Shown in pieces: positions 2,405-29,508 of a stretch of DNA of 35,590 nt. The notes under the pieces are model-generated. The model did no database searches. It was not told the DNA's origin and was given only the letters and a program-made list of their open reading frames with translations. Within the stretch, counting starts at the first letter, position 1, and every line of letters starts with the position of its first letter. Source of the stretch: Candidatus Woesearchaeota archaeon (GTDB lineage Archaea; Nanobdellota; Nanobdellia; Pacearchaeales; GW2011-AR1); NCBI GenBank assembly GCA_964604105.1, contig CAZRXO010000004.1, positions 1 through 35,590 of the forward strand. Direction: 5' to 3'. A program made the translations under genes and the position numbers.

Positions 2405-3850
2405 TTAACTTAAGTCTAAATTATATAACTGTTGTATTTCTGAATCTGACAGAGCTCTGTTGAATATCATAACCTCATCTATTTTTCCAGTCCAATCATA
2501 ACCATTACTAGAAGAAATTGCAAAAGATGTTTTTGTTGGGTCTTTATATGTGGCTGTGCCGCAAAGAATGTCATTTATATATAACTTAGCGTTTCCTGTT
2601 TCTGATTGTATTACAGTTGTGTAAAAATGCCATCCAGTAATATCTGAAGGAACACTACAGAAAGGATTATTCCAACTATCCCAAGTATTCAAACATATTG
2701 TTCCTGAGCCTGGAGTCCCAAAAAATAAATCTGGCCCTCCTGTTCCAGAATTGCCAATACACCAAAGCATATCTGTTCCCGATCCAGTATATGTTGCCCA
2801 TGCAGAGATAGTTACTGTTGAAGGAATGTTTATGTTTATATCAATATAATCATTACTTCCATCAAACTCATAAGCTTGTCCAAATTTTCCTGAAGTTAAT
2901 GTTGCTCCATTAACAACTCCGTCGTTATTTCCAATTTTATCAGTAGCATCACTGTCAAGCTTCCACCAAGAAATTCCTCCAAGATTTTCTACAAACTTAG
3001 TTGCATTTAATTCACAGATTCCATTAATACAATCAGAACTAGTATCACAAGTTTCACAATCTATTGTTCCTTCACAACCATCATCCCATGTTCCACATTC
3101 ATAGCCCAAACTTGTGCAAGTTTCAGGAGTGCATCCTTCACAGACACCTCCAACACAACATGAATCTTCACAATCTGAACTTGATTGGAAAGAACCTCCT
3201 TGACATTCCTCACTACTACTACAACATGTTCCTCCTAATTCAATTTCACAAAGAGGTTCACCACTAAATCCTCCACAACTCACTACCTCTTTAACTTTTG
3301 AATCCCCACAACTTACAAGCCTTCTTTTATTTTCTATTTCTTCAAATCTTATTGGAATAATTTCAATTGAATAAATTTGATTAGCCAAATTAAAACTCTC
3401 TGTTCTTTCTTCATTTGGTTTCATAGCATTTTCCTTTGTTGAAGTAAACAATATGGCATTTTCTAATAATACCTCATTGCTCTCGTTAATATATTGTGAC
3501 AAATCTATTGTTGCTAATTTTTGGCTAGAATCATTTGTAGCGTGGATAAAATATCCTGCTATGTTGAATTTTCCATTATTTTTCAGTGTCAAATCCAGAT
3601 TTAAATTTGCACAATTAAGGTTAATATCTTTTATAAATATGGAAACTCCGTCAGGGCATTCTAATTCTTCTCCTGGTAAATATGTTTTCATCCATTGATA
3701 AATAGCAACACTCATAGCCACTGCAGCAGTTATTAATAAAACATAACCAATCATTATGCTTATGCCTTTCTTATTCAAATTACCATATTGATTTCGAAAA
3801 GATAGAAATTTTTTATTTCCTGCCTTATTCTTTTTAATTTGTGATAACAT
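2405..3850 (-). CDS. Pilin-like protein fused to a Cys-rich linker and a C-terminal LamG/concanavalin-like domain (probable adhesin)
   Basis: NKKG|ISIMIGYVLLI; Cys-rich middle region; WWKLD...GKFGQAYEFDGSNDYI...TISAW...WHF...GKIDEVMIFNRALSDSEIQQLY. Confidence 0.88.
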   Translation of the reverse strand: MLSQIKKNKAGNKKFLSFRNQYGNLNKKGISIMIGYVLLITAAVAMSVAIYQWMKTYLPGEELECPDGVSIFIKDINLNCANLNLDLTLKNNGKFNIAGYFIHATNDSSQKLATIDLSQYINESNEVLLENAILFTSTKENAMKPNEERTESFNLANQIYSIEIIPIRFEEIENKRRLVSCGDSKVKEVVSCGGFSGEPLCEIELGGTCCSSSEECQGGSFQSSSDCEDSCCVGGVCEGCTPETCTSLGYECGTWDDGCEGTIDCETCDTSSDCINGICELNATKFVENLGGISWWKLDSDATDKIGNNDGVVNGATLTSGKFGQAYEFDGSNDYIDININIPSTVTISAWATYTGSGTDMLWCIGNSGTGGPDLFFGTPGSGTICLNTWDSWNNPFCSVPSDITGWHFYTTVIQSETGNAKLYINDILCGTATYKDPTKTSFAISSSNGYDWTGKIDEVMIFNRALSDSEIQQLYNLDLS

Positions 3851-6307: not shown

Positions 6308-7120
6308 CTATTTCCTAACAGCAAACAAAACAAAAATCAAAACTAAAAAAAGAATCAATACAATTCCCAAAATAGAAAACAATAAATAACTCTCTCCTGA
6401 ATCTTCTTGAACAATTGCATTTCTTAAAACCGGTTCATCACAACCCACAGCCCCAGTAGGTTTATTATAAGAATACTCACAATAATTTGTGTCCTTACAA
6501 TTTCTCGTCTTTAACCCATTATAACAAGCACTCCAATCTCCACAATCCCAATTTGATTCACAAATATCATAAAATAATCCCCCATCGTCACCGCAACAAC
6601 AATCATCCTCTTCCTCTTCTTCATAAGGCAAAGTTATTATTTCACAAGTTAAATCACAATAATCACAGGAAGAAGTTGAATTATCACACACCACACCATT
6701 ATTAATTCCATCGTCGCAACTTTCTCCTAAATCCAAAACACCGTCGCCACAAATTCCCACAGGAGGACTTGAACAATCTTCTGGACAACTTAGATAATCT
6801 TCACTTCCAGAACAAATTCCATCCCCACAATATCCAAAAGCATAATCACAATATCCTGGCAAACCAGCATAACCTGCATCACAGCAATTCCCATGACCAT
6901 CTCCATCGCTGTCAACTTGAAGAGGATTGTAAACATAATAACAATTATCATTAATATTCAAAACACCGTCGCCATCATAATCTCCATATGGGTCAGGCAT
7001 TGACATTGCAAAAACAAAACTCGCAAATAAAACAATTCCAAATATTAAGACTATGCCCTTAGTAAAAATCCTTGAAAAATCTTTTTCAAGGTACACCAGT
7101 GGTGAGTTTTTAATTTTCAT
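6308..7120 (-). CDS. Cys-rich surface protein (thrombospondin type 3 Ca-binding repeat, CGDG repeats, TSP1-like module, TM anchor)
   Basis: DYDGDGVLNINDNCYYVYNPLQVDSDGDGHGNCCD; CGDGVLDLGESCDDG; WDCGDWSAC; C-terminal TM. Confidence 0.85.
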   Translation of the reverse strand: MKIKNSPLVYLEKDFSRIFTKGIVLIFGIVLFASFVFAMSMPDPYGDYDGDGVLNINDNCYYVYNPLQVDSDGDGHGNCCDAGYAGLPGYCDYAFGYCGDGICSGSEDYLSCPEDCSSPPVGICGDGVLDLGESCDDGINNGVVCDNSTSSCDYCDLTCEIITLPYEEEEEDDCCCGDDGGLFYDICESNWDCGDWSACYNGLKTRNCKDTNYCEYSYNKPTGAVGCDEPVLRNAIVQEDSGESYLLFSILGIVLILFLVLIFVLFAVRK

Positions 7121-8000
7121 TTTTCCTCTTTTTATATTTTAATCCTATAACTAATAACCCTAAAAGAACAATTAATCCTAATGCAATCAAACCCATTCCT
7201 AATTTAGTTTTTATAAAACCAACAACACTTCCAGTAATTCCAAGACCACTACTATCTTGTTCCTCTTCTATAATCTCAAATAATTCCTCATCGTCGCCTG
7301 TCTCAACACTTAAATCAATTAACCCAGACTCTTCATTTGTTGTCGCTGAACTACTTGAAGATGAACTAGAACTACTACTTCCTCCGCCACCGCCTCCACC
7401 GCCTCCACCGCCTCCGCCACCACCAGAAGAACAAGCCCCACAATCAGTTGAACAACTTGAACATGTTTCTCCATTGTTGCAAGTTCCGTCGCCACAAAAA
7501 AGTCCTTGAACACAAGAACTTGGTTGGCCTGTACAAATATAACTATATTCAACTTCGCAAATCAAAGAACATCCATCAGAACTATTTGAATTTCCGTCGT
7601 CGCATTCTTCACCAGCCTCAATAACTCCATTACCACAAACATCATCAAGAGAAGGCAATTCATTCAATGTTAAATTTAAATTAATTTCTTTACCCCAATC
7701 ATCAGGATTATAATCAACTTTCTCATTTGCCTCAACACCATTAATTACAAAGCTCACTTCCCCAGAAGAAATACCATAACAAGGAGACACATCAGTATAA
7801 TAATGTCCTTGATTAAAATTATCATAACCAACAATATCGTGGTTCAACATTGCCTTAAGTAAATAATCTCCTGAAATTAAATTTCCATTGTAGTAGATAT
7901 TTCCATAATAAGTTACAGGAATATTCGGTGGGCACGATGCTGCAGATAAAAAACTAATTGCGAATAAAAACATAATCCCAAACACAAATTCTTTTCTCAT
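7110..8000 (-). CDS. Surface protein with myxococcus-type Cys-rich repeat, Gly/Ser linker and TM anchor
   Basis: Signal peptide; CGNGVIEAGEECDDGNSNSSDGCSLICEVE; poly-G/poly-S; ITGSVVG before the TM; basic tail. Confidence 0.85.
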   Translation of the reverse strand: MRKEFVFGIMFLFAISFLSAASCPPNIPVTYYGNIYYNGNLISGDYLLKAMLNHDIVGYDNFNQGHYYTDVSPCYGISSGEVSFVINGVEANEKVDYNPDDWGKEINLNLTLNELPSLDDVCGNGVIEAGEECDDGNSNSSDGCSLICEVEYSYICTGQPSSCVQGLFCGDGTCNNGETCSSCSTDCGACSSGGGGGGGGGGGGGGGSSSSSSSSSSSATTNEESGLIDLSVETGDDEELFEIIEEEQDSSGLGITGSVVGFIKTKLGMGLIALGLIVLLGLLVIGLKYKKRKNEN

Positions 8001-9177: not shown

Positions 9178-10995
9178 TTAGTCAAAATAATAACTCAATG
9201 GATCATAAGTCATAGTTTCATGACCTGAAACAGGAAGTTTAGTTCTTAACCAATATCCTTCTCCTAAATCCACTGTTGTAGCAATATTCCAACTTGATAT
9301 TCCATCCCACTTCAAAAATCCACTTGCATACCAATCTCCATTAAGAGTTTCAAATGCAGTTGCTGGAGGCAGATTAAATGGATTTGAACCAAATCTACCA
9401 ATTAAATTCCAAGCATCAGATGCTAATTCAACAGACGGAACAGGACCCATTCCTGGAGCAAAGTTTTCTTCAATTCCATAAAGAGTATCTGCATTATCCA
9501 TCTTTATCCAATAAGCATAACCTGGAACAACAGTATCCAACTTGTAAGTTGATGAAGACCAAGTAAAACTTGTATGCCCTGAACTAGGTCTTGATTTGTA
9601 CCACCTTCCTTCATTATCATTGTATGTTGAATCATACATTAAAACAGTTGCTGTGCTTGAATCTACATAAGCAACATTCGGAAGAATATCTGCAAAAACA
9701 GCGTCGATATCTGAATCAGCAGGCACATAAGGAATAGAAATTAAATTCCATCCAGAGCCCAAGTGAACACCCCAACTATAAACAGTTACATCAAAAGAGT
9801 AATATTTATAGTCAACACCATTGCTGGCACGGATAATCACATGATTCTCTCCTCTCTGGTCATTTGTTGGAGTCCAAAGAATCTTACACTTATCTGCACC
9901 CACTGGAGTTGAAGTCATACCAACAGGTAAAACAACACCATCACAAGCAGTGATTCCAGATATAGATGTTTTAAATCTATGAACATTTCCACTAACCGCC
10001 CAAGGAGCATCCAAATCAAATTCAAATGCTTCATTAGCTACTACTTTTTGCATTGGAGTCATGTGTTCTGGATCTTCAACTTCTAAAATATGTTGAGCAA
10101 GACAAACTTCACCACCATCTTTATCTTCAAAACATAAATCAACAGTGTGTGGACTTGCAGAAGTCCAAGTATGATAAATTTCACAAGTTCCAGTTGCATC
10201 AGCTGTGCTTGTATCTACAACTTCATCAACAGTTCCTGCATCAAAAGTCCAAGTACAAAGCAAACCTGCATTCAAATCAGCAACAACATCAATTGCATTT
10301 GCATCAAAGAAAGCAGCCTGACTAGAAGCAACATCTGTTGGAGTTGTAATCCAAACAGGACACCACGGAGCAACATTCGCAACAGAAACATCAACAGAAT
10401 CTACAGCAGTATTTCCTGCTAAATCTTCAACAGTTACAACAACAGTGTAAACACCATTATCATCATATTGGTGTTGTTTTGAACTCCCACTTGCAGGACA
10501 AGAAGTCGAATGACCATCACCCCAATCAAGAGTACAAGTAACAGGATTTACATCTCCATAATTTGTTAAAATCTTAACTTTATTATTATACTCATCTGCA
10601 CCAGGATACATTGGAGTTGTTTCATGAATATCAACCCATGGAGCAGTGTTATCTATTGTAAAAGATTCTTGATCATATAACCATGAATCAAGAACAAGTC
10701 TTAAACAATAAGAACCATCAGAATAATCTGTGGTATCCCAATCATAAATTAATTCATCACTTGCTAACGGACCAGATAAATCATCCCAATCACTTGAACC
10801 ACAAGGACTCGGAGCATATTGTAAATATAATCCCGGAGCACTTGCAGTATTAGTCCATTCTATTAAATAACTATCGCCTGAAAGATATGATGGAAAAGGC
10901 GAAGGAACAAAATCCACTCCTCCAACAGCACTAACAACACCAAAAGTTCCTAACAACATAACCCCTAACATTAATGTTAACATTAATTTTTTCAT
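9178..10995 (-). CDS. Large secreted PKD/Ig-like domain protein, candidate S-layer or cell-surface protein
   Basis: Signal peptide; DWGDG...HQYDDNGVYTVVVTVED PKD motif; two GWNLIS/AWNLIG...PGYAYWI/GEGYWL repeats; acidic; strong SD and long leader. Confidence 0.8.
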   Translation of the reverse strand: MKKLMLTLMLGVMLLGTFGVVSAVGGVDFVPSPFPSYLSGDSYLIEWTNTASAPGLYLQYAPSPCGSSDWDDLSGPLASDELIYDWDTTDYSDGSYCLRLVLDSWLYDQESFTIDNTAPWVDIHETTPMYPGADEYNNKVKILTNYGDVNPVTCTLDWGDGHSTSCPASGSSKQHQYDDNGVYTVVVTVEDLAGNTAVDSVDVSVANVAPWCPVWITTPTDVASSQAAFFDANAIDVVADLNAGLLCTWTFDAGTVDEVVDTSTADATGTCEIYHTWTSASPHTVDLCFEDKDGGEVCLAQHILEVEDPEHMTPMQKVVANEAFEFDLDAPWAVSGNVHRFKTSISGITACDGVVLPVGMTSTPVGADKCKILWTPTNDQRGENHVIIRASNGVDYKYYSFDVTVYSWGVHLGSGWNLISIPYVPADSDIDAVFADILPNVAYVDSSTATVLMYDSTYNDNEGRWYKSRPSSGHTSFTWSSSTYKLDTVVPGYAYWIKMDNADTLYGIEENFAPGMGPVPSVELASDAWNLIGRFGSNPFNLPPATAFETLNGDWYASGFLKWDGISSWNIATTVDLGEGYWLRTKLPVSGHETMTYDPLSYYFD

Positions 10996-22516: not shown

Positions 22517-23437
22517 TTACAAAAGTTCTCTTAATCTATCTACTCGAGAAGGGTGCCTTAATTTTCTTAATGCCCTTGCTTCAATTTGCCTTATTCGTTC
22601 TCTTGTAACATTAAAATATTCTCCGATTTCTTCAAGAGGTTTATCTTCATAAAATCTCATCTTAATTACTTCCCTCTCTCGCAAAGACAAAGTCATTAAC
22701 ACTTCTTCAATAGTCTCAATTCTTTCTTTCTCAAAATAACTTTCCTCAGAAGAATCTCTTCCAAAAGAAGATTGATATCCCCTTAAAAATCTAGAATAAT
22801 TTTCATCCCCTTCAACAAGATAGTCCAAAGAATTTGGATTTGTTGGAATCACATTATATCTCTCAAACTTCTTTTGTCTCTTTTCTTCTAATTCTTGTCT
22901 TATTTCACTTAGTTCCCTCGGAAGCCCAGCTTTGTTTCTTAATTTATAAATATCCCTATCAAATCTTGTCCGAAACACAGAAGAATATTTTAATTTAGAT
23001 AATTTATATGAAGGTGTGTCGGGGTTTTCTCTTATATACTCAATTAGTTCTTGCTCTCTTTTTTGCCATTCTTCTTCAGCATACTGATGTTGAGTAAATC
23101 TTTTTCTCACTGACAAACCTGCTTCTTCTTTTGCTTTGTTAAAAGACCGCCCATAAAATCTCAAAATTACTGGTTGAAAACCCAAATCTACTGCATCAGC
23201 ATATGTAGCATCAGGATATTTTCTTAACCATTTATCAAAAATTTCTTTCATATTGTGGAGATTCTTTATTTTTGCTCGAACTCCTGCATCTTGTTTTGCC
23301 CAATTTATTCCATGATGATAAAAAGAACATAAAATTCTCCTAAAATCTTCTTCCATCCTTCTAAAACTAATTTTAGGATTCTTCCTTAAATAATCAAAAA
23401 GATCTTCTTTATTTTTCTCAGTATATCTTTGACCCAT
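22517..23437 (-). CDS. Protein with three helical repeats and a C-terminal RpoD-like sigma-70 region 4
   Basis: [14 protein letters not shown]...[31 protein letters not shown]; no sigma region 2 visible. Confidence 0.85.
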
Positions 23438-25934: not shown

Positions 25935-25992
25935 TTAGTAAGTTCTTTAGAAAAGTTGATGGAAGAGAAGTTATAGGGTATTATTCAAAAAT

Positions 25993-27108
25993 TTACCTCC
26001 TAATCATTTTTATTTCCTTAAATGCCTGATTAATCATTAATTTTGAAAGTTCACATTTAATTTTATTTGGCTTTGAAAAATTTTCTGAGGATTGATAATT
26101 TTCATTAAAACATCCCCCACCACAAATATATTTAATAGAACATTTACTACAAGGAGACATTTTATCAACAGATAATTTATTTAATCTGTCACACTTTTCT
26201 TTATTTAAATTAAGACTATTCCCACTAACTTTTCCCGCAACAAAAGGAGAATCAAAATCATCATGAATTGCCCTCACACATTTAGTTATCTTCCCGTCTG
26301 CAGTTACTGCAATCCTATTTCCCCTAACAAACTGGCAAAAATAATCTCGAGGGTTAAACAAATTTCTTAATGCCCAATTTGAAACATAAACTATTCTTCC
26401 TGTTTTTTTTGAAAATTCTCTTGCAACTTTTGCAGCCTTAAAAAAATATTCAACAAATTCTTCTGGATTAACAGATTTTAATTTTGTTTTTATTGCACGC
26501 CCATCAATTAACAAAGCTTCTAAACGAATATGGTTTATTCCCAGCCCCAAGATATATTTTACAATTAAAGGCATAGTTTTTATAGTTTCATTTGTAACAA
26601 CAACTTTTAATCTAATTTTAGATTTACTTTTAACTAACAAACTAATTAATCTTTCAATATAATACGAGGATTTTAAATTTCCTTTTACAAATGGTCTTTG
26701 TTTATTATGAAATTTAGGAGGACCATCACAGCAAATATCAAATCTAAACTTTTTTGAAATCATCCAAATTATATTTTCTTCACTAGTAACACCATTTGTG
26801 CTTATCCAATAATTTGAATCAATTTTTTCTTTTTCTAAAAATTCCACAACAGTTTTTATTGTGTCTATTCTTAATGTTGGTTCTCCTCCAAAAAAATGTA
26901 TATTTAATTTTGGTTCTTTTACATTTGAAATAAATTTATTAAAATTTTTTATTATTATTCTAAGATAAGACACTGCAATTTTTGGACTCATTTCTTGTGA
27001 ATCTTCCATAGTACAAGAAACACAATCTCTTTTATCATCAAAACAATAAATACAATTAAGAGGACACTTAGAAGTAAGATATAATGTTATAGAAAGTCGT
27101 TCTTCCAT
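25993..27108 (-). CDS. Radical SAM/SPASM domain enzyme, candidate peptide maturase
   Basis: CPLNCIYC, FFGGEPTL, STNG, DGP..HNKQR; SPASM C-x18-C ... Cx2Cx5Cx3C-x18-C. Confidence 0.93.
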   Translation of the reverse strand: MEERLSITLYLTSKCPLNCIYCFDDKRDCVSCTMEDSQEMSPKIAVSYLRIIIKNFNKFISNVKEPKLNIHFFGGEPTLRIDTIKTVVEFLEKEKIDSNYWISTNGVTSEENIIWMISKKFRFDICCDGPPKFHNKQRPFVKGNLKSSYYIERLISLLVKSKSKIRLKVVVTNETIKTMPLIVKYILGLGINHIRLEALLIDGRAIKTKLKSVNPEEFVEYFFKAAKVAREFSKKTGRIVYVSNWALRNLFNPRDYFCQFVRGNRIAVTADGKITKCVRAIHDDFDSPFVAGKVSGNSLNLNKEKCDRLNKLSVDKMSPCSKCSIKYICGGGCFNENYQSSENFSKPNKIKCELSKLMINQAFKEIKMIRR

Positions 27109-27109
27109 T

Positions 27110-27424
27110 CTAATTCTCTAATTCTAAAGTTTCCTTGACCTTCTTGGCTAAACCTTTCACTTTTATTTCAAGAACAACAGGAAATTTTTTTTTAGGGGAA
27201 TACATTGCAAGATATATCACCTCCTCTTCACCAATTCTAACAGAAACATGGTAATTTCCATTATAAGAAGTAGGTTCGGATTTTTTATCCCTATAAGAAT
27301 CATCAACAAAATTTCCTAAACCCACAAGAATTGCAGTAGGTCCACCTATAACTATTGCTTTTTCTTTAAATTCTTTAGTTAAAGCCCTTACTTCTTCAAG
27401 AGTTTCATAAACTTGAATTTTCAT
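27110..27424 (-). CDS. Hypothetical 104-aa protein in the radical SAM operon
   Basis: ATG 27424 (MKIQVYET) lies 2 nt after the peptide stop; its own stop lies 1 nt before the rSAM ATG. Confidence 0.75.
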   Translation of the reverse strand: MKIQVYETLEEVRALTKEFKEKAIVIGGPTAILVGLGNFVDDSYRDKKSEPTSYNGNYHVSVRIGEEEVIYLAMYSPKKKFPVVLEIKVKGLAKKVKETLELEN

Positions 27425-27426
27425 TT

Positions 27427-27516
27427 TCAAATACAACAAGCATCTTGTTCAGGATCTGGTCCAAAACCAAGTTCTTTCACTTCCAAGTCTTCAACTAAAC
27501 TTTCTTTAATTTCCAT
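27427..27516 (-). CDS. 29-aa candidate RiPP precursor MEIKESLVEDLEVKELGFGPDPEQDACCI
   Basis: Below the ORF track cut-off. ATG about 24 nt after a TTTTAA TATA-like box (27541-27546); first gene of a tightly packed three-gene operon. Confidence 0.75.
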   Translation of the reverse strand: MEIKESLVEDLEVKELGFGPDPEQDACCI

Positions 27517-27550
27517 AACATTTAAGGATCATAGAACTTCTTAAAACTTA

Positions 27551-27570
27551 TTCGTATATTATAATACGAA
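27551..27570. promoter_or_regulatory. Palindrome, candidate TrmB operator
   Basis: TTCGTAT-N6-ATACGAA between two divergent TATA-like boxes. Confidence 0.65.
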
Positions 27571-27602
27571 AATAATATAAACTCCAACACCCATTTATTC
27601 AC

Positions 27603-28319
27603 ATGAGAAATAAACAAATAATTAAAGAGTCAGGTTTAACAGAAAATGAATCGGAGATATATTTAATTCTAATAAATAAAGGGGAATCAACAATCTACCA
27701 AATATCAGACCATACAAAAATATCAAGACCAAATATTTATGATGTTATCAAAACTCTCAAGGAAAAAGGACTTGTATCTGAAATAATCAAAGAAAATAAA
27801 AAACACTTTCAAGCAATATCTCCTGAAAAACTCTTAGACTTACTAAAAATAAAACAAGAAAATCTTTTAGAAATTATCCCAGAATTAATGAATAAATACG
27901 AAGGTAAAATAAGAAAGCCAACCATAGAAGTATTTCAAGGTATAGAAGGATTAAAATCAATAATGAATGATTTACTAAAAACTAAAAAAGATATTTTAAT
28001 CTTCAATCAAATAGAAGAGGAAAAAATTCTTGATTATATTCCGGATTTTTACTTAGAGAGATATTTTAATCAAACAACAAAAAATAAGATAAAGATCAAA
28101 GTGCTTTATTCTTATGAAAAATGTCCAAAGAAAAGGAAGAATTATCAATTCAAAAAACTCTCAGATGAACATCTTGGAAATGTAGGCTATTGGGTTTATG
28201 GAAACAAAGTTGCAATTGGTATCTGGACACAGCAACCAATTTTCATAAGAATCACTGATGAAGAAGTTGCAAAGACTTATAAAAAAAGTATTGAATTAAC
28301 TTGGAAATCCACAAAATAA
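27603..28319 (+). CDS. TrmB family transcriptional regulator
   Basis: GLTENESEIYLIL...ISRPNIYDVI...KGLV...AISPEKL...FQGIEGLKS. Confidence 0.92.
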   Translation: MRNKQIIKESGLTENESEIYLILINKGESTIYQISDHTKISRPNIYDVIKTLKEKGLVSEIIKENKKHFQAISPEKLLDLLKIKQENLLEIIPELMNKYEGKIRKPTIEVFQGIEGLKSIMNDLLKTKKDILIFNQIEEEKILDYIPDFYLERYFNQTTKNKIKIKVLYSYEKCPKKRKNYQFKKLSDEHLGNVGYWVYGNKVAIGIWTQQPIFIRITDEEVAKTYKKSIELTWKSTK

Positions 28320-28334
28320 CAAATTTTATAAAGG

Positions 28335-28350
28335 TATATCAATTGATATA
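28335..28350. promoter_or_regulatory. Perfect 16-bp palindrome between TATA and start (autoregulatory operator candidate)
   Basis: TATATCAATTGATATA, 3 nt before ATG 28354. Confidence 0.7.
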
Positions 28351-28353
28351 ACC

Positions 28354-28650
28354 ATGTTGAAGTTAATCAAAAAACAAAATCCTTCTGCAAGATATCCTCG
28401 GCTAGACACTGTTATGTTTCTAGAAGATTTCATAAAAGAATACGACGGAGAATTCAGAAAAAAACAACTCTGGCAAGCACTTCCAAAAAAAATAATGTAT
28501 CAAACATTTTCTCTAATTTTAGATTATCTTATTCTCTCAGGAAAAGTATCTGTGGATTCGGAAGGAAAAATAGGATGGATATACTACCCCAAGAATGTAG
28601 AAAAAAGACTCAAAGAAACACATTTATTTTGGAGAAAAAATGGAAAGTAA
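28354..28650 (+). CDS. Small wHTH-like protein, probable antitoxin
   Basis: PRLDTVMFLE...LWQALPKKIMYQTFSLILDYL..SGKV; overlaps the downstream toxin-like gene. Confidence 0.7.
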   Translation: MLKLIKKQNPSARYPRLDTVMFLEDFIKEYDGEFRKKQLWQALPKKIMYQTFSLILDYLILSGKVSVDSEGKIGWIYYPKNVEKRLKETHLFWRKNGK

Positions 28651-28960
28651 AATAAACTTTGCTAATGAAAAAATACAAAAAGCATTTGAAAAATTAAAAA
28701 AAGACGACCCAAATTTATACAAAATAATTATAAGAGCATTTGAAGATATTGAAAAAAATGTATTCTGCGGAATTCAAATCCCAAAAAGATTAATTCCAAA
28801 AGAATACTTTCAGAAATTTAATGTAAAAAATATTTGGAAATATAATCTTCCTGATGCGTGGAGATTAATTTATAGTATTGAAGGAAAAAATTTACTCATA
28901 TTCTCAATAATTCTCGAATGGCTCGACCACAAAACTTATGAGAGAAGATTTAAATATTAA
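28640..28960 (+). CDS. RelE-like toxin
   Basis: GIQIPKRLIP...NIWKYNLPDAWRLIYSI...LEWLDHKTYERRF. Confidence 0.7.
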   Translation: MESKINFANEKIQKAFEKLKKDDPNLYKIIIRAFEDIEKNVFCGIQIPKRLIPKEYFQKFNVKNIWKYNLPDAWRLIYSIEGKNLLIFSIILEWLDHKTYERRFKY

Positions 28961-28977
28961 ATTTAACTAAGATACAA

Positions 28978-29337
28978 ATGAAGCTACACTTACACTTAAT
29001 TACAGCACTATTAATCTTTGTATTAATTTTAGTTGGGGGAGCATATACATATCATCACGTCGAAGGATGGAGCATATTAGATTCTACATATTTCACAGTC
29101 ATAACAGCAACAACAATCGGCTACGGGGACTTAACACCCCAAACAACAACAGGAAAAATATTCACAATGTTTTTCGCATTCTTCGGCGTAGCAACAGTAT
29201 TATATTTCATTTCAGCAATCGGCTCATATATATTCAAAGAAAATATTAACAAAAGAGTCGACCAATTAAAGCACCATATTCAAAAACAAGAAGAATTAAA
29301 AAACAAGAAAACTAACAAAAAGTTGAAAAGAAAATAA
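28978..29337 (+). CDS. Minimal two-TM potassium channel
   Basis: DSTYFTVITATTIGYGD selectivity filter. Confidence 0.95.
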   Translation: MKLHLHLITALLIFVLILVGGAYTYHHVEGWSILDSTYFTVITATTIGYGDLTPQTTTGKIFTMFFAFFGVATVLYFISAIGSYIFKENINKRVDQLKHHIQKQEELKNKKTNKKLKRK

Positions 29338-29377
29338 ACAAAAAACTGAAAAGATAAAGAAGTTATATTCTTGAGAA

Positions 29378-29464
29378 TTTTTGGTTTTGTTATTCATTCA
29401 CTAATCTGGGTGGGCGAACAAAGTGAGTTGGGTGGGGGATGGTGGCGGGATTCAAAACCAAAAA
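29378..29464. repeat. G-rich element bounded by 12-bp perfect inverted repeats
   Basis: TTTTTGGTTTTG at 29378-29389 and CAAAACCAAAAA at 29453-29464; internal TGGGTGGG twice. Confidence 0.55.
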
Positions 29465-29508
29465 ACCCAAACCAACAAATTAATAAATAATCATTCTATC
29501 TCCTAAGT

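Follow-up and report, generated by a model that had tools for sequence, protein, structure and literature searches.

A conserved 29-residue peptide gene beside a SPASM radical SAM enzyme on a variable segment of a DPANN-type archaeal genome

Does a reading frame of only 29 codons in a small archaeal genome encode the substrate of the radical S-adenosylmethionine (SAM) enzyme gene that follows it, and what would such an enzyme do to so short a peptide? The question is raised by contig CAZRXO010000004.1 of a Candidatus Woesearchaeota archaeon (assembly GCA_964604105.1), whose first 35,590 nucleotides (nt), taken whole, are here called the window. The initial annotation had proposed that a hidden 29-amino-acid (29-aa) open reading frame (ORF), a small protein of 104 aa and a radical SAM/SPASM enzyme make up one system for a ribosomally made and post-translationally modified peptide (RiPP). 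This central claim is supported, with conserved peptides found upstream in all three of the related loci whose upstream DNA can be read. Our best reading is a new family of radical SAM-modified peptides which, by analogy with characterized enzymes, probably have a thioether linkage. The cluster consists of the following parts:

27427..27516, minus strand: precursor peptide gene, 29 aa plus stop, sequence MEIKESLVEDLEVKELGFGPDPEQDACCI, an acidic leader (9 D/E, 2 K/R) followed by the C-terminal core
27430..27468, minus strand: core region GFGPDPEQDACCI, family motif G-F-[GA]-P-D-x-x-Q-[DE]-A-C-C-[IF]
27110..27424, minus strand: 104-aa accessory protein, cysteine-free, ATG at 27424, apparently a coreless member of a "long-leader precursor" family (~100 aa)
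25993..27108, minus strand: radical SAM/SPASM enzyme, 371 aa, PF04055 and TIGR04085, without the ~60-aa N-terminal domain of most homologues

The gaps are 2 nt between the 29-aa ORF and the 104-aa gene and 1 nt between the 104-aa and 371-aa genes, and the position of the ORF, both gaps and the order peptide-small protein-radical SAM enzyme are as first described. The ORF listing also gives an alternative, TTG-initiated form of the middle gene (109 aa, 27439-27110).

The peptide gene and its relatives

Between 24000 and 29500 the ORF listing contains 59 ORFs of at least 25 aa, and the presence of a 29-codon ORF alone is thus little evidence of a gene; we judge this one to stand above chance because it is conserved in other loci. 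A search for relatives of the enzyme in an index of 5.8 billion proteins gave 24 hits, 21 of them (P0001-P0021) at 44-82% identity, and scans of genome and metagenome contigs yielded five close loci (L012, L031, L032, L033 and L034; enzyme identity, 51-61%). Upstream DNA is readable in three of the five (L012, L032 and L034), and all three carry peptides ending in GF[GA]PDxxQ[DE]ACC[IF]; in L031 and L033 the first cluster gene has 9 and 25 nt of contig ahead of it, respectively. The same-strand short ORFs upstream in L012 and L034 end in ...ESGFAPDEDQDACCI and ...ELGFGPDSDQEACCI, respectively, and L032 has two upstream peptide copies, with the ends ...ELGFGPDEEQEACCF and ...DFGFGPDEEQEACCI. 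Conserved peptides ending in D-x-C-C-x upstream of close radical SAM homologues were what the initial annotation had told its readers to look for, and D/E-A-C-C-x is what we observe at each readable locus. No short precursors were found in the protein database, perhaps because such ORFs are rarely called, and in the 769-kb assembly that includes the window the precursor is present in one copy, with no further copies elsewhere.

Over the last 14 codons, pairwise comparisons between loci give 2-7 synonymous and 3-5 non-synonymous codon differences, and this codon pattern in the conserved core is, on the alignment, the one that purifying selection would leave in a core that is translated. A co-occurring variant strain, represented by contigs from four lake-water DNA runs, shows a sole core change, at 27460, which is synonymous, and three amino-acid changes in the leader (27477-27484), all of this resting on one contig at a depth of 3.9. 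Among 6 runs considered with regard to expression, none is listed as RNA. The peptide therefore has the properties by which a RiPP system is recognized, namely, a short precursor whose leader varies and whose core is conserved, adjacent to the modifying enzyme and co-conserved with it. As judged from sequence comparison, the 29-aa ORF is a real, conserved gene.

With respect to the wider family, peptide genes with other endings precede more distant enzymes. In L003, a locus from another genome of the same class (enzyme 36% identical), two preceding peptides end in ...EYFDSEENLVKCCI and ...AKCSL, the first of them closing with KCCI. In L157, which gave the best match among 400 sampled genomes of the same order (E = 1.9e-75), the preceding peptide ends in ...GLSAGCTVCI. 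A cysteine adjoining a hydrophobic C-terminal residue is common to the peptides of the window, the close loci, L003 and L157, and only the close clade shows the pattern of acidic residues D-x-[DE]-Q-[DE]-A. L037 and L038, with enzymes ~30% identical to that of the window, have a different conserved peptide, ending in ...KTMDCFD. We built a quick tree by maximum likelihood, with 62 rows (the window, the 24 database hits and 37 loci chosen out of about 200), in which the window and P0001-P0021 form a clade of 22 (Shimodaira-Hasegawa-like approximate likelihood ratio test support, 99) with L157 as sister (91) and the window/P0001 pair nested inside. Taken together with the gene neighborhoods, this tree indicates that the 29-aa gene travels with a monophyletic SPASM radical SAM clade and a TrmB-type regulator. 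One related locus bears the depositor label Candidatus Woesearchaeota, and among viral contigs the top matches of those listed are at 24-26% identity.

The regulator and its candidate operator lie on the other side of the peptide gene:

27603..28319, plus strand: TrmB-family regulator, 238 aa, divergent (PF01978, 62.8 bits against a cutoff of 25.6)
27551..27570, no strand: palindrome TTCGTAT-N6-ATACGAA, candidate operator, with perfect 7-nt arms (repeat search), overlapping the TATA-like spacer

A divergent TrmB homologue is present in all four loci with at least 0.7 kb of readable upstream DNA (the window, L032, L003 and L157). The homologues of L032, L003 and L157 are 35-53% identical to that of the window and are likewise divergent beside the peptide genes. 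When compared with full-length TrmB equivalog models, the window's regulator falls well short (45 bits versus 500). The divergent intergenic region between the 29-aa ORF and the regulator gene measures 86 nt, and AT-rich, TATA-like strings are present in it upstream of the ORF, in line with the TATA-like box first noted there. Half-sites like the TTCGTAT palindrome were seen by eye in the matching spacers of L032, L003 and L157, with the reservation that short palindromes are common in AT-rich DNA.

Some of the related loci are of interest in their own right. L012 is a 6.9-kb contig with a guanine-plus-cytosine (GC) content of 38.9% and the depositor label uncultured Gammaproteobacteria; it holds the same peptide-enzyme pair (enzyme 61% identical), which implies a mistaken bin label or else passage of the system between domains. 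In L172, L175 and L177 (genomes G582, G571 and G327, from the same archaeal family), SPASM genes are preceded by 77-87-aa proteins ending in ...EF[CS]NY.LGLM[KQ]N..., which we take to resemble the small HxsD-type partner of His-Xaa-Ser systems. The SPASM-gene loci L169, L170, L173 and L179 come with CxCxC-rich or RC[SK]GWCHD-repeat peptides.

The enzyme and its small neighbor

The enzyme is a member of the radical SAM superfamily (PF04055, 30.5 bits; cutoff, 29.5) and has a SPASM domain (TIGR04085, 42 bits; cutoff, 27). The CX3CX2C motif (C15/C19/C22) is invariant in 16 aligned sequences, and so are the SPASM cysteines C258, C277, C320, C323, C329, C333 and C352, confirming the full seven-Cys SPASM motif recognized at the outset. 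The extra CVSC that had been pointed out next to it is indeed present (C29 and C32) but not conserved, both cysteines being missing from 2 of the 16 aligned sequences, and it is on this evidence unlikely to act as a cluster ligand.

When scored with NCBIfam models, the window enzyme obtains 112 bits for PapB (NF047865; cutoff, 340), 100.7 for the nif11 maturase (518.7), 90.2 for HxsB (370), 80.5 for QhpD (TIGR03906; 453), 80.1 for SCIFF (TIGR03974; 425) and 78.8 for anSME (TIGR03942; 349). PapB is the top model for the window enzyme and for all four homologues tested (96-138 bits in the homologues), the top ranking being the same throughout. The clustering with sulfatase maturases that would have spoken against the proposal of the initial annotation is thus not what we see, since the peptide-maturase models score higher than anSME, all of them below cutoff. 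The PapB, YhhB and DynA models are ~330-370 residues long, and the window enzyme is matched from their first positions (position 4 in PapB). The mycofactocin maturase model TIGR03962 (cutoff, 265) is absent from the best 25 of the 54 families matched by the window enzyme at E <= 1, and homologue P0003 scores 45 bits against it. The nearest solved structure by sequence is PDB 5wgg/5why (E = 1.9e-33), presumably CteB; anSME structures are matched at E = 1.1e-18.

Most relatives of the enzyme are longer. Twenty of the 21 close homologues have 425-459 aa and open with a conserved ~60-residue domain (consensus KDxLWNGLPAVFYxxKYIIFSPY...), which in some model alignments is collinear with the N-terminal parts of CefB, not_ScfB and nif11 maturases. 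P0001 (82% identical, 372 aa) shares the short architecture of the window enzyme, and a small protein 73% identical to that of the window, P0025, is also on record, the longest contig of P0025 and of P0001 being 3210 in both cases. We count this second short enzyme and its small protein as support for a system that would still be under selection. Because of its place in the tree, the loss of the N-terminal domain is read as a derived state. A PqqD-like nature of the domain was considered and rejected by sequence (no Pfam match and no PDB sequence match below E = 0.3).

What, then, is the 104-aa protein between peptide and enzyme? The family is a rare one: with a profile of five members we obtained 13 proteins out of 1.84 billion representatives, 7 with E <= 1e-10. 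None of the 14 members of the small-protein family has a Pfam or NCBIfam match at E <= 1, and the 29-aa peptide likewise has none. Core-like tails are found in 3 of the 14 aligned members: P0027, the L034 gene, ends in ...KKYMGFGPDSDQEACCI (tail also given as ...GFGPDSDQEACCI), P0031 in ...SLGIGPDPDQDACCV (also ...GIGPDPDQDACCV) and P0037 in ...YGVFPDSKIWSYCI (also ...PDSKIWSYCI). Other members have degenerate ends, such as ...KELGLEELLG, ...EMAFGRVE and the window's ...KETLELEN. The long-form tail in L034 is identical in DNA to that of the neighboring short precursor, indicating that at least that fusion is recent. In a joint alignment, the short peptides match the last strand, C-terminal helix and tail of the long forms, so that the short precursors resemble offshoots from the 3' end of a long-leader precursor gene. 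By the same comparison, the window's 104-aa protein looks like a long-leader precursor that lost its core.

Two other identities were tried for this protein and found no support. A split-off N-terminal domain of the enzyme is contradicted by an hhalign probability of 0.8% and by L032, L033 and L034, which have both. A PqqD/MftB-type element finds no Pfam or NCBIfam match and no PqqD-type fold among the PDB matches, although a missing fold match does not by itself exclude the small protein from the RiPP recognition element (RRE)/PqqD family. In 400 other genomes of the order, matches to the small protein occur only at E >= 1.4e-4, within open frames of 109-321 aa, and are read as noise.

An AlphaFold2 model from 14 sequences, used in place of an earlier one from 5 sequences with a predicted local distance difference test (pLDDT) score of 65, predicts an alpha/beta domain (pLDDT, 82; predicted template modeling score, 0.67), for which the ESM Atlas returned no usable match. 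The initial annotation had suggested cofolding the peptide, the small protein and the enzyme; for the small protein with the enzyme, the median complex score is 0.39, versus 0.00 for the best control, with runs agreeing in at least 70% of contacts and a partner pLDDT of at least 58. Among solved complexes, 58 of 80 reached the 0.39 mark, compared with 2 of 110 mismatched pairs; within the range <= 0.60, those that reached it were 7 of the 80 solved complexes and both mismatches. The prediction thereby lends weak support to binding of the small protein to the enzyme.

Genomic setting, proposed chemistry and rival readings

The assembly measures 769 kb in 46 contigs, is 79% complete and has a GC content of 31.7%. 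The window's genes include GatD, GatE and a ProRS with a ProRS-C_1 domain, which fits an archaeon. The cluster itself lies on a stretch between GatE and AspRS genes:

25935..29508, no strand: variable segment of 3.57 kb, with the cluster and regulator, a 98-aa ORF, a 106-aa ORF of weak RelE similarity and the gene for a 119-aa K+ channel

In G611, a genome of the same genus (86% complete), GatE and AspRS have 8 nt between them, whereas 3,574 nt (25935-29508) separate them in the window, indicating that the cluster sits on a variable, probably transferable, segment. Segment GC content is 28.0%, compared with 31.8% in the rest of the window. No flanking repeats, tRNA or known RNA were found at the segment edges. 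In family-model scans, no gene in 25935-29508 matched peptidase or transporter families, which agrees with the lack of an adjacent protease or exporter remarked on earlier.

We propose the following working model. The regulator would control the divergent promoter through the palindrome, and the peptide-small protein-enzyme operon would then be transcribed. The enzyme, using its SAM cluster and two auxiliary clusters, would abstract hydrogen from the core, and one or both C-terminal cysteines would be joined to a carbon in a residue upstream of them, with Asp/Glu side chains as the most plausible targets, leaving one or two small thioether rings beside the C-terminus. The choice of Asp/Glu as acceptor is made by analogy with PapB/ranthipeptide and QhpD/QhpC chemistry. 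The coreless 104-aa protein may serve in trans as a docking or recognition partner, and would in this way compensate for the lost N-terminal domain of the enzyme; the peptide leader resembles its last strand and helix. With neither a dedicated protease nor an exporter present, the product may remain attached to its leader or inside the cell. Such a working RiPP-type system, placed on a small accessory segment in the genome of a DPANN-type archaeon and making Cys-to-acid thioethers, is the account that we adopt, at somewhat better than an even chance.

Several observations weigh against this account. The enzyme stays far below the cutoff of every named maturase family. Acidic residues are missing from the last 13 positions of the L157 peptide, and since the close family alone retains the Asp/Glu pattern, the acceptor may be another one, as may even the type of reaction. 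There is no fold match to support a binding role for the small protein (Foldseek on the PDB gave nothing at E <= 0.001; best VIA Z, 3.4), and its absence from L012 and L003 means that it is not essential to the family. The window enzyme is without the N-terminal domain that all but one of its 21 close homologues possess, and a search of the 79%-complete genome did not turn this domain up anywhere else.

The missing domain also speaks for another reading, in which the cluster is a decaying remnant, with an enzyme deprived of its substrate-recognition domain, a long precursor deprived of its core and nothing modified in the organism. The cysteine-free end of the small protein (...KETLELEN) and the same-genus genome without the cluster point the same way. 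We nevertheless hold this to be quite unlikely, given that none of the three ORFs is interrupted and the 10 cluster cysteines are all retained, that the 82%-identical orthologue shares the architecture, that the variant strain's sole core change is synonymous and that several SPASM maturase models (PapB, YhhB and DynA) are of similar length and match from their first positions. Chemistry confined to the C-terminal dipeptide, for example, an MftC-like oxidative decarboxylation or cyclization of the penultimate Cys and the terminal Ile, Phe or Val, would yield an intracellular redox-active or signaling end group, like a peptide-derived cofactor. It would explain why a penultimate Cys plus one hydrophobic residue is common to divergent members (ACCI, ACCF, ACCV, KCCI, GCTVCI and SYCI) while the acidic positions vary, and it sits well with a segment that has no exporter or protease. 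However, the mycofactocin maturase model is among the weakest matches (outside the top 25, and far below cutoff for P0003), the L003 paralogue ends in KCSL and the L037/L038 peptides in MDCFD, and no accessory enzymes of cofactor pathways are present, so that we consider this reading unlikely.

Highly improbable, in our view, is a substrate other than the peptide, be it a protein cysteine oxidized as in anaerobic sulfatase maturases or some other small molecule, with the peptide as a bystander. The anSME score is near those of the peptide-maturase models, and anSME structures are found by sequence, but the peptide gene is tightly linked to and co-conserved with the enzyme across 36-82% enzyme identity, and the segment contains no sulfatase or other candidate substrate gene. 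A more ambitious interpretation, which we regard as possible and rather doubtful, would see here a new class of modification, acting on the C-terminus of a peptide or the tail of a protein. A domain of ~100 residues without a PDB match would be a built-in leader where the core is attached to it and otherwise a separate partner of short precursors, with SPASM chemistry on a penultimate Cys unlike the named ranthipeptide, sactipeptide and mycofactocin patterns. It would be carried on a mobile segment among genome-reduced DPANN archaea, and its product could be a signal or a cofactor directed toward a host.

Other features of the window were recorded apart from these questions. At 28354-28960 (plus strand), within the segment, the 98-aa and 106-aa ORFs overlap; the latter shows RelE/YoeB similarity below cutoff (E = 0.0028), and related DNA (64-77% identity) is found on two other contigs of G611, which suggests a mobile toxin-antitoxin-like pair. 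A G-rich stretch at 29395-29465, in a spacer of 31% GC before the AspRS gene, has partial copies (~90% over 30-31 nt) on contigs C9 and C11; it matches no tRNA or known Rfam family, and its folding is no better than that of shuffled sequences (z = -1.56). A 15-nt AT-rich word at 29480-29494 recurs at positions 8-22 of contigs C2, C3, C17, C20, C32 and C43, suggesting a dispersed repeat where the assembly breaks. Outside the segment, a 306-aa protein (22517-23437, minus strand) has a bacterial-type sigma-70 region 4 (PF04545, 73.4 bits; TIGR02937, 60.5 bits against 42.9), in contrast to the archaeal look of other genes (GatD/GatE and TrmB). Large proteins with Laminin_G_3, DUF4215 and PKD domains (2405-3850, 7110-8000 and 9178-10995, minus strand) are, by their domains, likely surface or adhesion proteins, as expected in an episymbiont.

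Known systems in comparison

The initial annotation knew of no such pathway from a reduced DPANN-type genome, a statement that does not hold: the accessible part of an antiSMASH survey reports radical SAM RiPP clusters spread across DPANN (PMC12144867), and of 401 sampled genomes of the order, the window's own included, 24 have SPASM homologues, with other cysteine-rich peptides. Archaeal modified peptides are almost uncharacterized, and for DPANN the accessible sources offer automated cluster calls, not products. The cluster described here provides a compact four-gene test case with a defined core motif and a candidate operator, and nature supplies variants, in the form of short and long precursors and of enzymes with and without the N-terminal domain. 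Its study could reveal a new solution to leader recognition and possibly new radical chemistry at a peptide C-terminus, and it raises the question of why an organism with less than 1 Mb of DNA keeps such a system.

Under the thioether model, the systems to compare are those in which SPASM enzymes act on cysteines near acidic residues. PapB/PapA (freyrasin) and the ranthipeptides, a class defined by a thioether from a Cys sulfur to a non-alpha carbon in another residue, resemble the window in having a SPASM enzyme beside a short acidic precursor with cysteines near Asp/Glu, and the PapB model is about as long as the window enzyme; however, scores of 96-138 bits against 340 place the window enzyme and its homologues outside the PapB family, and the window system is archaeal, with an extra long-leader accessory protein. 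PapA has repeated Cys-X3-Asp motifs, whereas the window peptide has a single C-terminal Cys-Cys after the acids, that is, in the reverse order. CteB/CteA, a SCIFF system, offers the closest solved structure by sequence and shares the radical SAM core and SPASM layout. Most window-family enzymes have an N-terminal domain where CteB has its first ~96 residues, which the window enzyme is without. The window peptide contains 2 cysteines in 29 residues, unlike the six in ~45 of SCIFF, and its enzyme lies outside TIGR03974 (80.1 versus 425 bits). In QhpD/QhpC, the enzyme makes Cys-to-Asp/Glu thioethers in a small protein and not in a free peptide, which recalls those family members where a ~100-aa protein carries the core. 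The differences are the score (80.5 versus 453 bits), the lack of amine dehydrogenase genes nearby and the position of the core at the extreme C-terminus.

The comparison with mycofactocin (MftA-MftB-MftC), drawn from the start, holds for gene order, for the target at the peptide C-terminus and for the lack of an exporter. It breaks down at the middle protein, which shows no PqqD/RRE signal in Pfam or NCBIfam and looks instead like a coreless relative of long precursors; the MftC model match is weak and MftD/E/F genes are missing, so that the window system falls outside the mycofactocin family. MftA ends in GVY (Gly-Val-Tyr), whereas the window peptide ends in ACCI. NHLP/Nif11 long-leader precursors likewise have a folded leader domain of ~100 residues for a short C-terminal core, and the nif11-type maturase model is the second-best match of the enzyme (100.7 bits). 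In contrast to them, none of the 14 small-protein members matches such models at E <= 1, and in 11 of the 14 the core appears to be lost, with separate short precursors present alongside. The kind of system, peptides modified by radical SAM/SPASM enzymes, is thus a known one, and what appears to be uncatalogued are its parts: the precursor type, an accessory domain without a PDB fold match and a mobile setting in a reduced archaeal genome.

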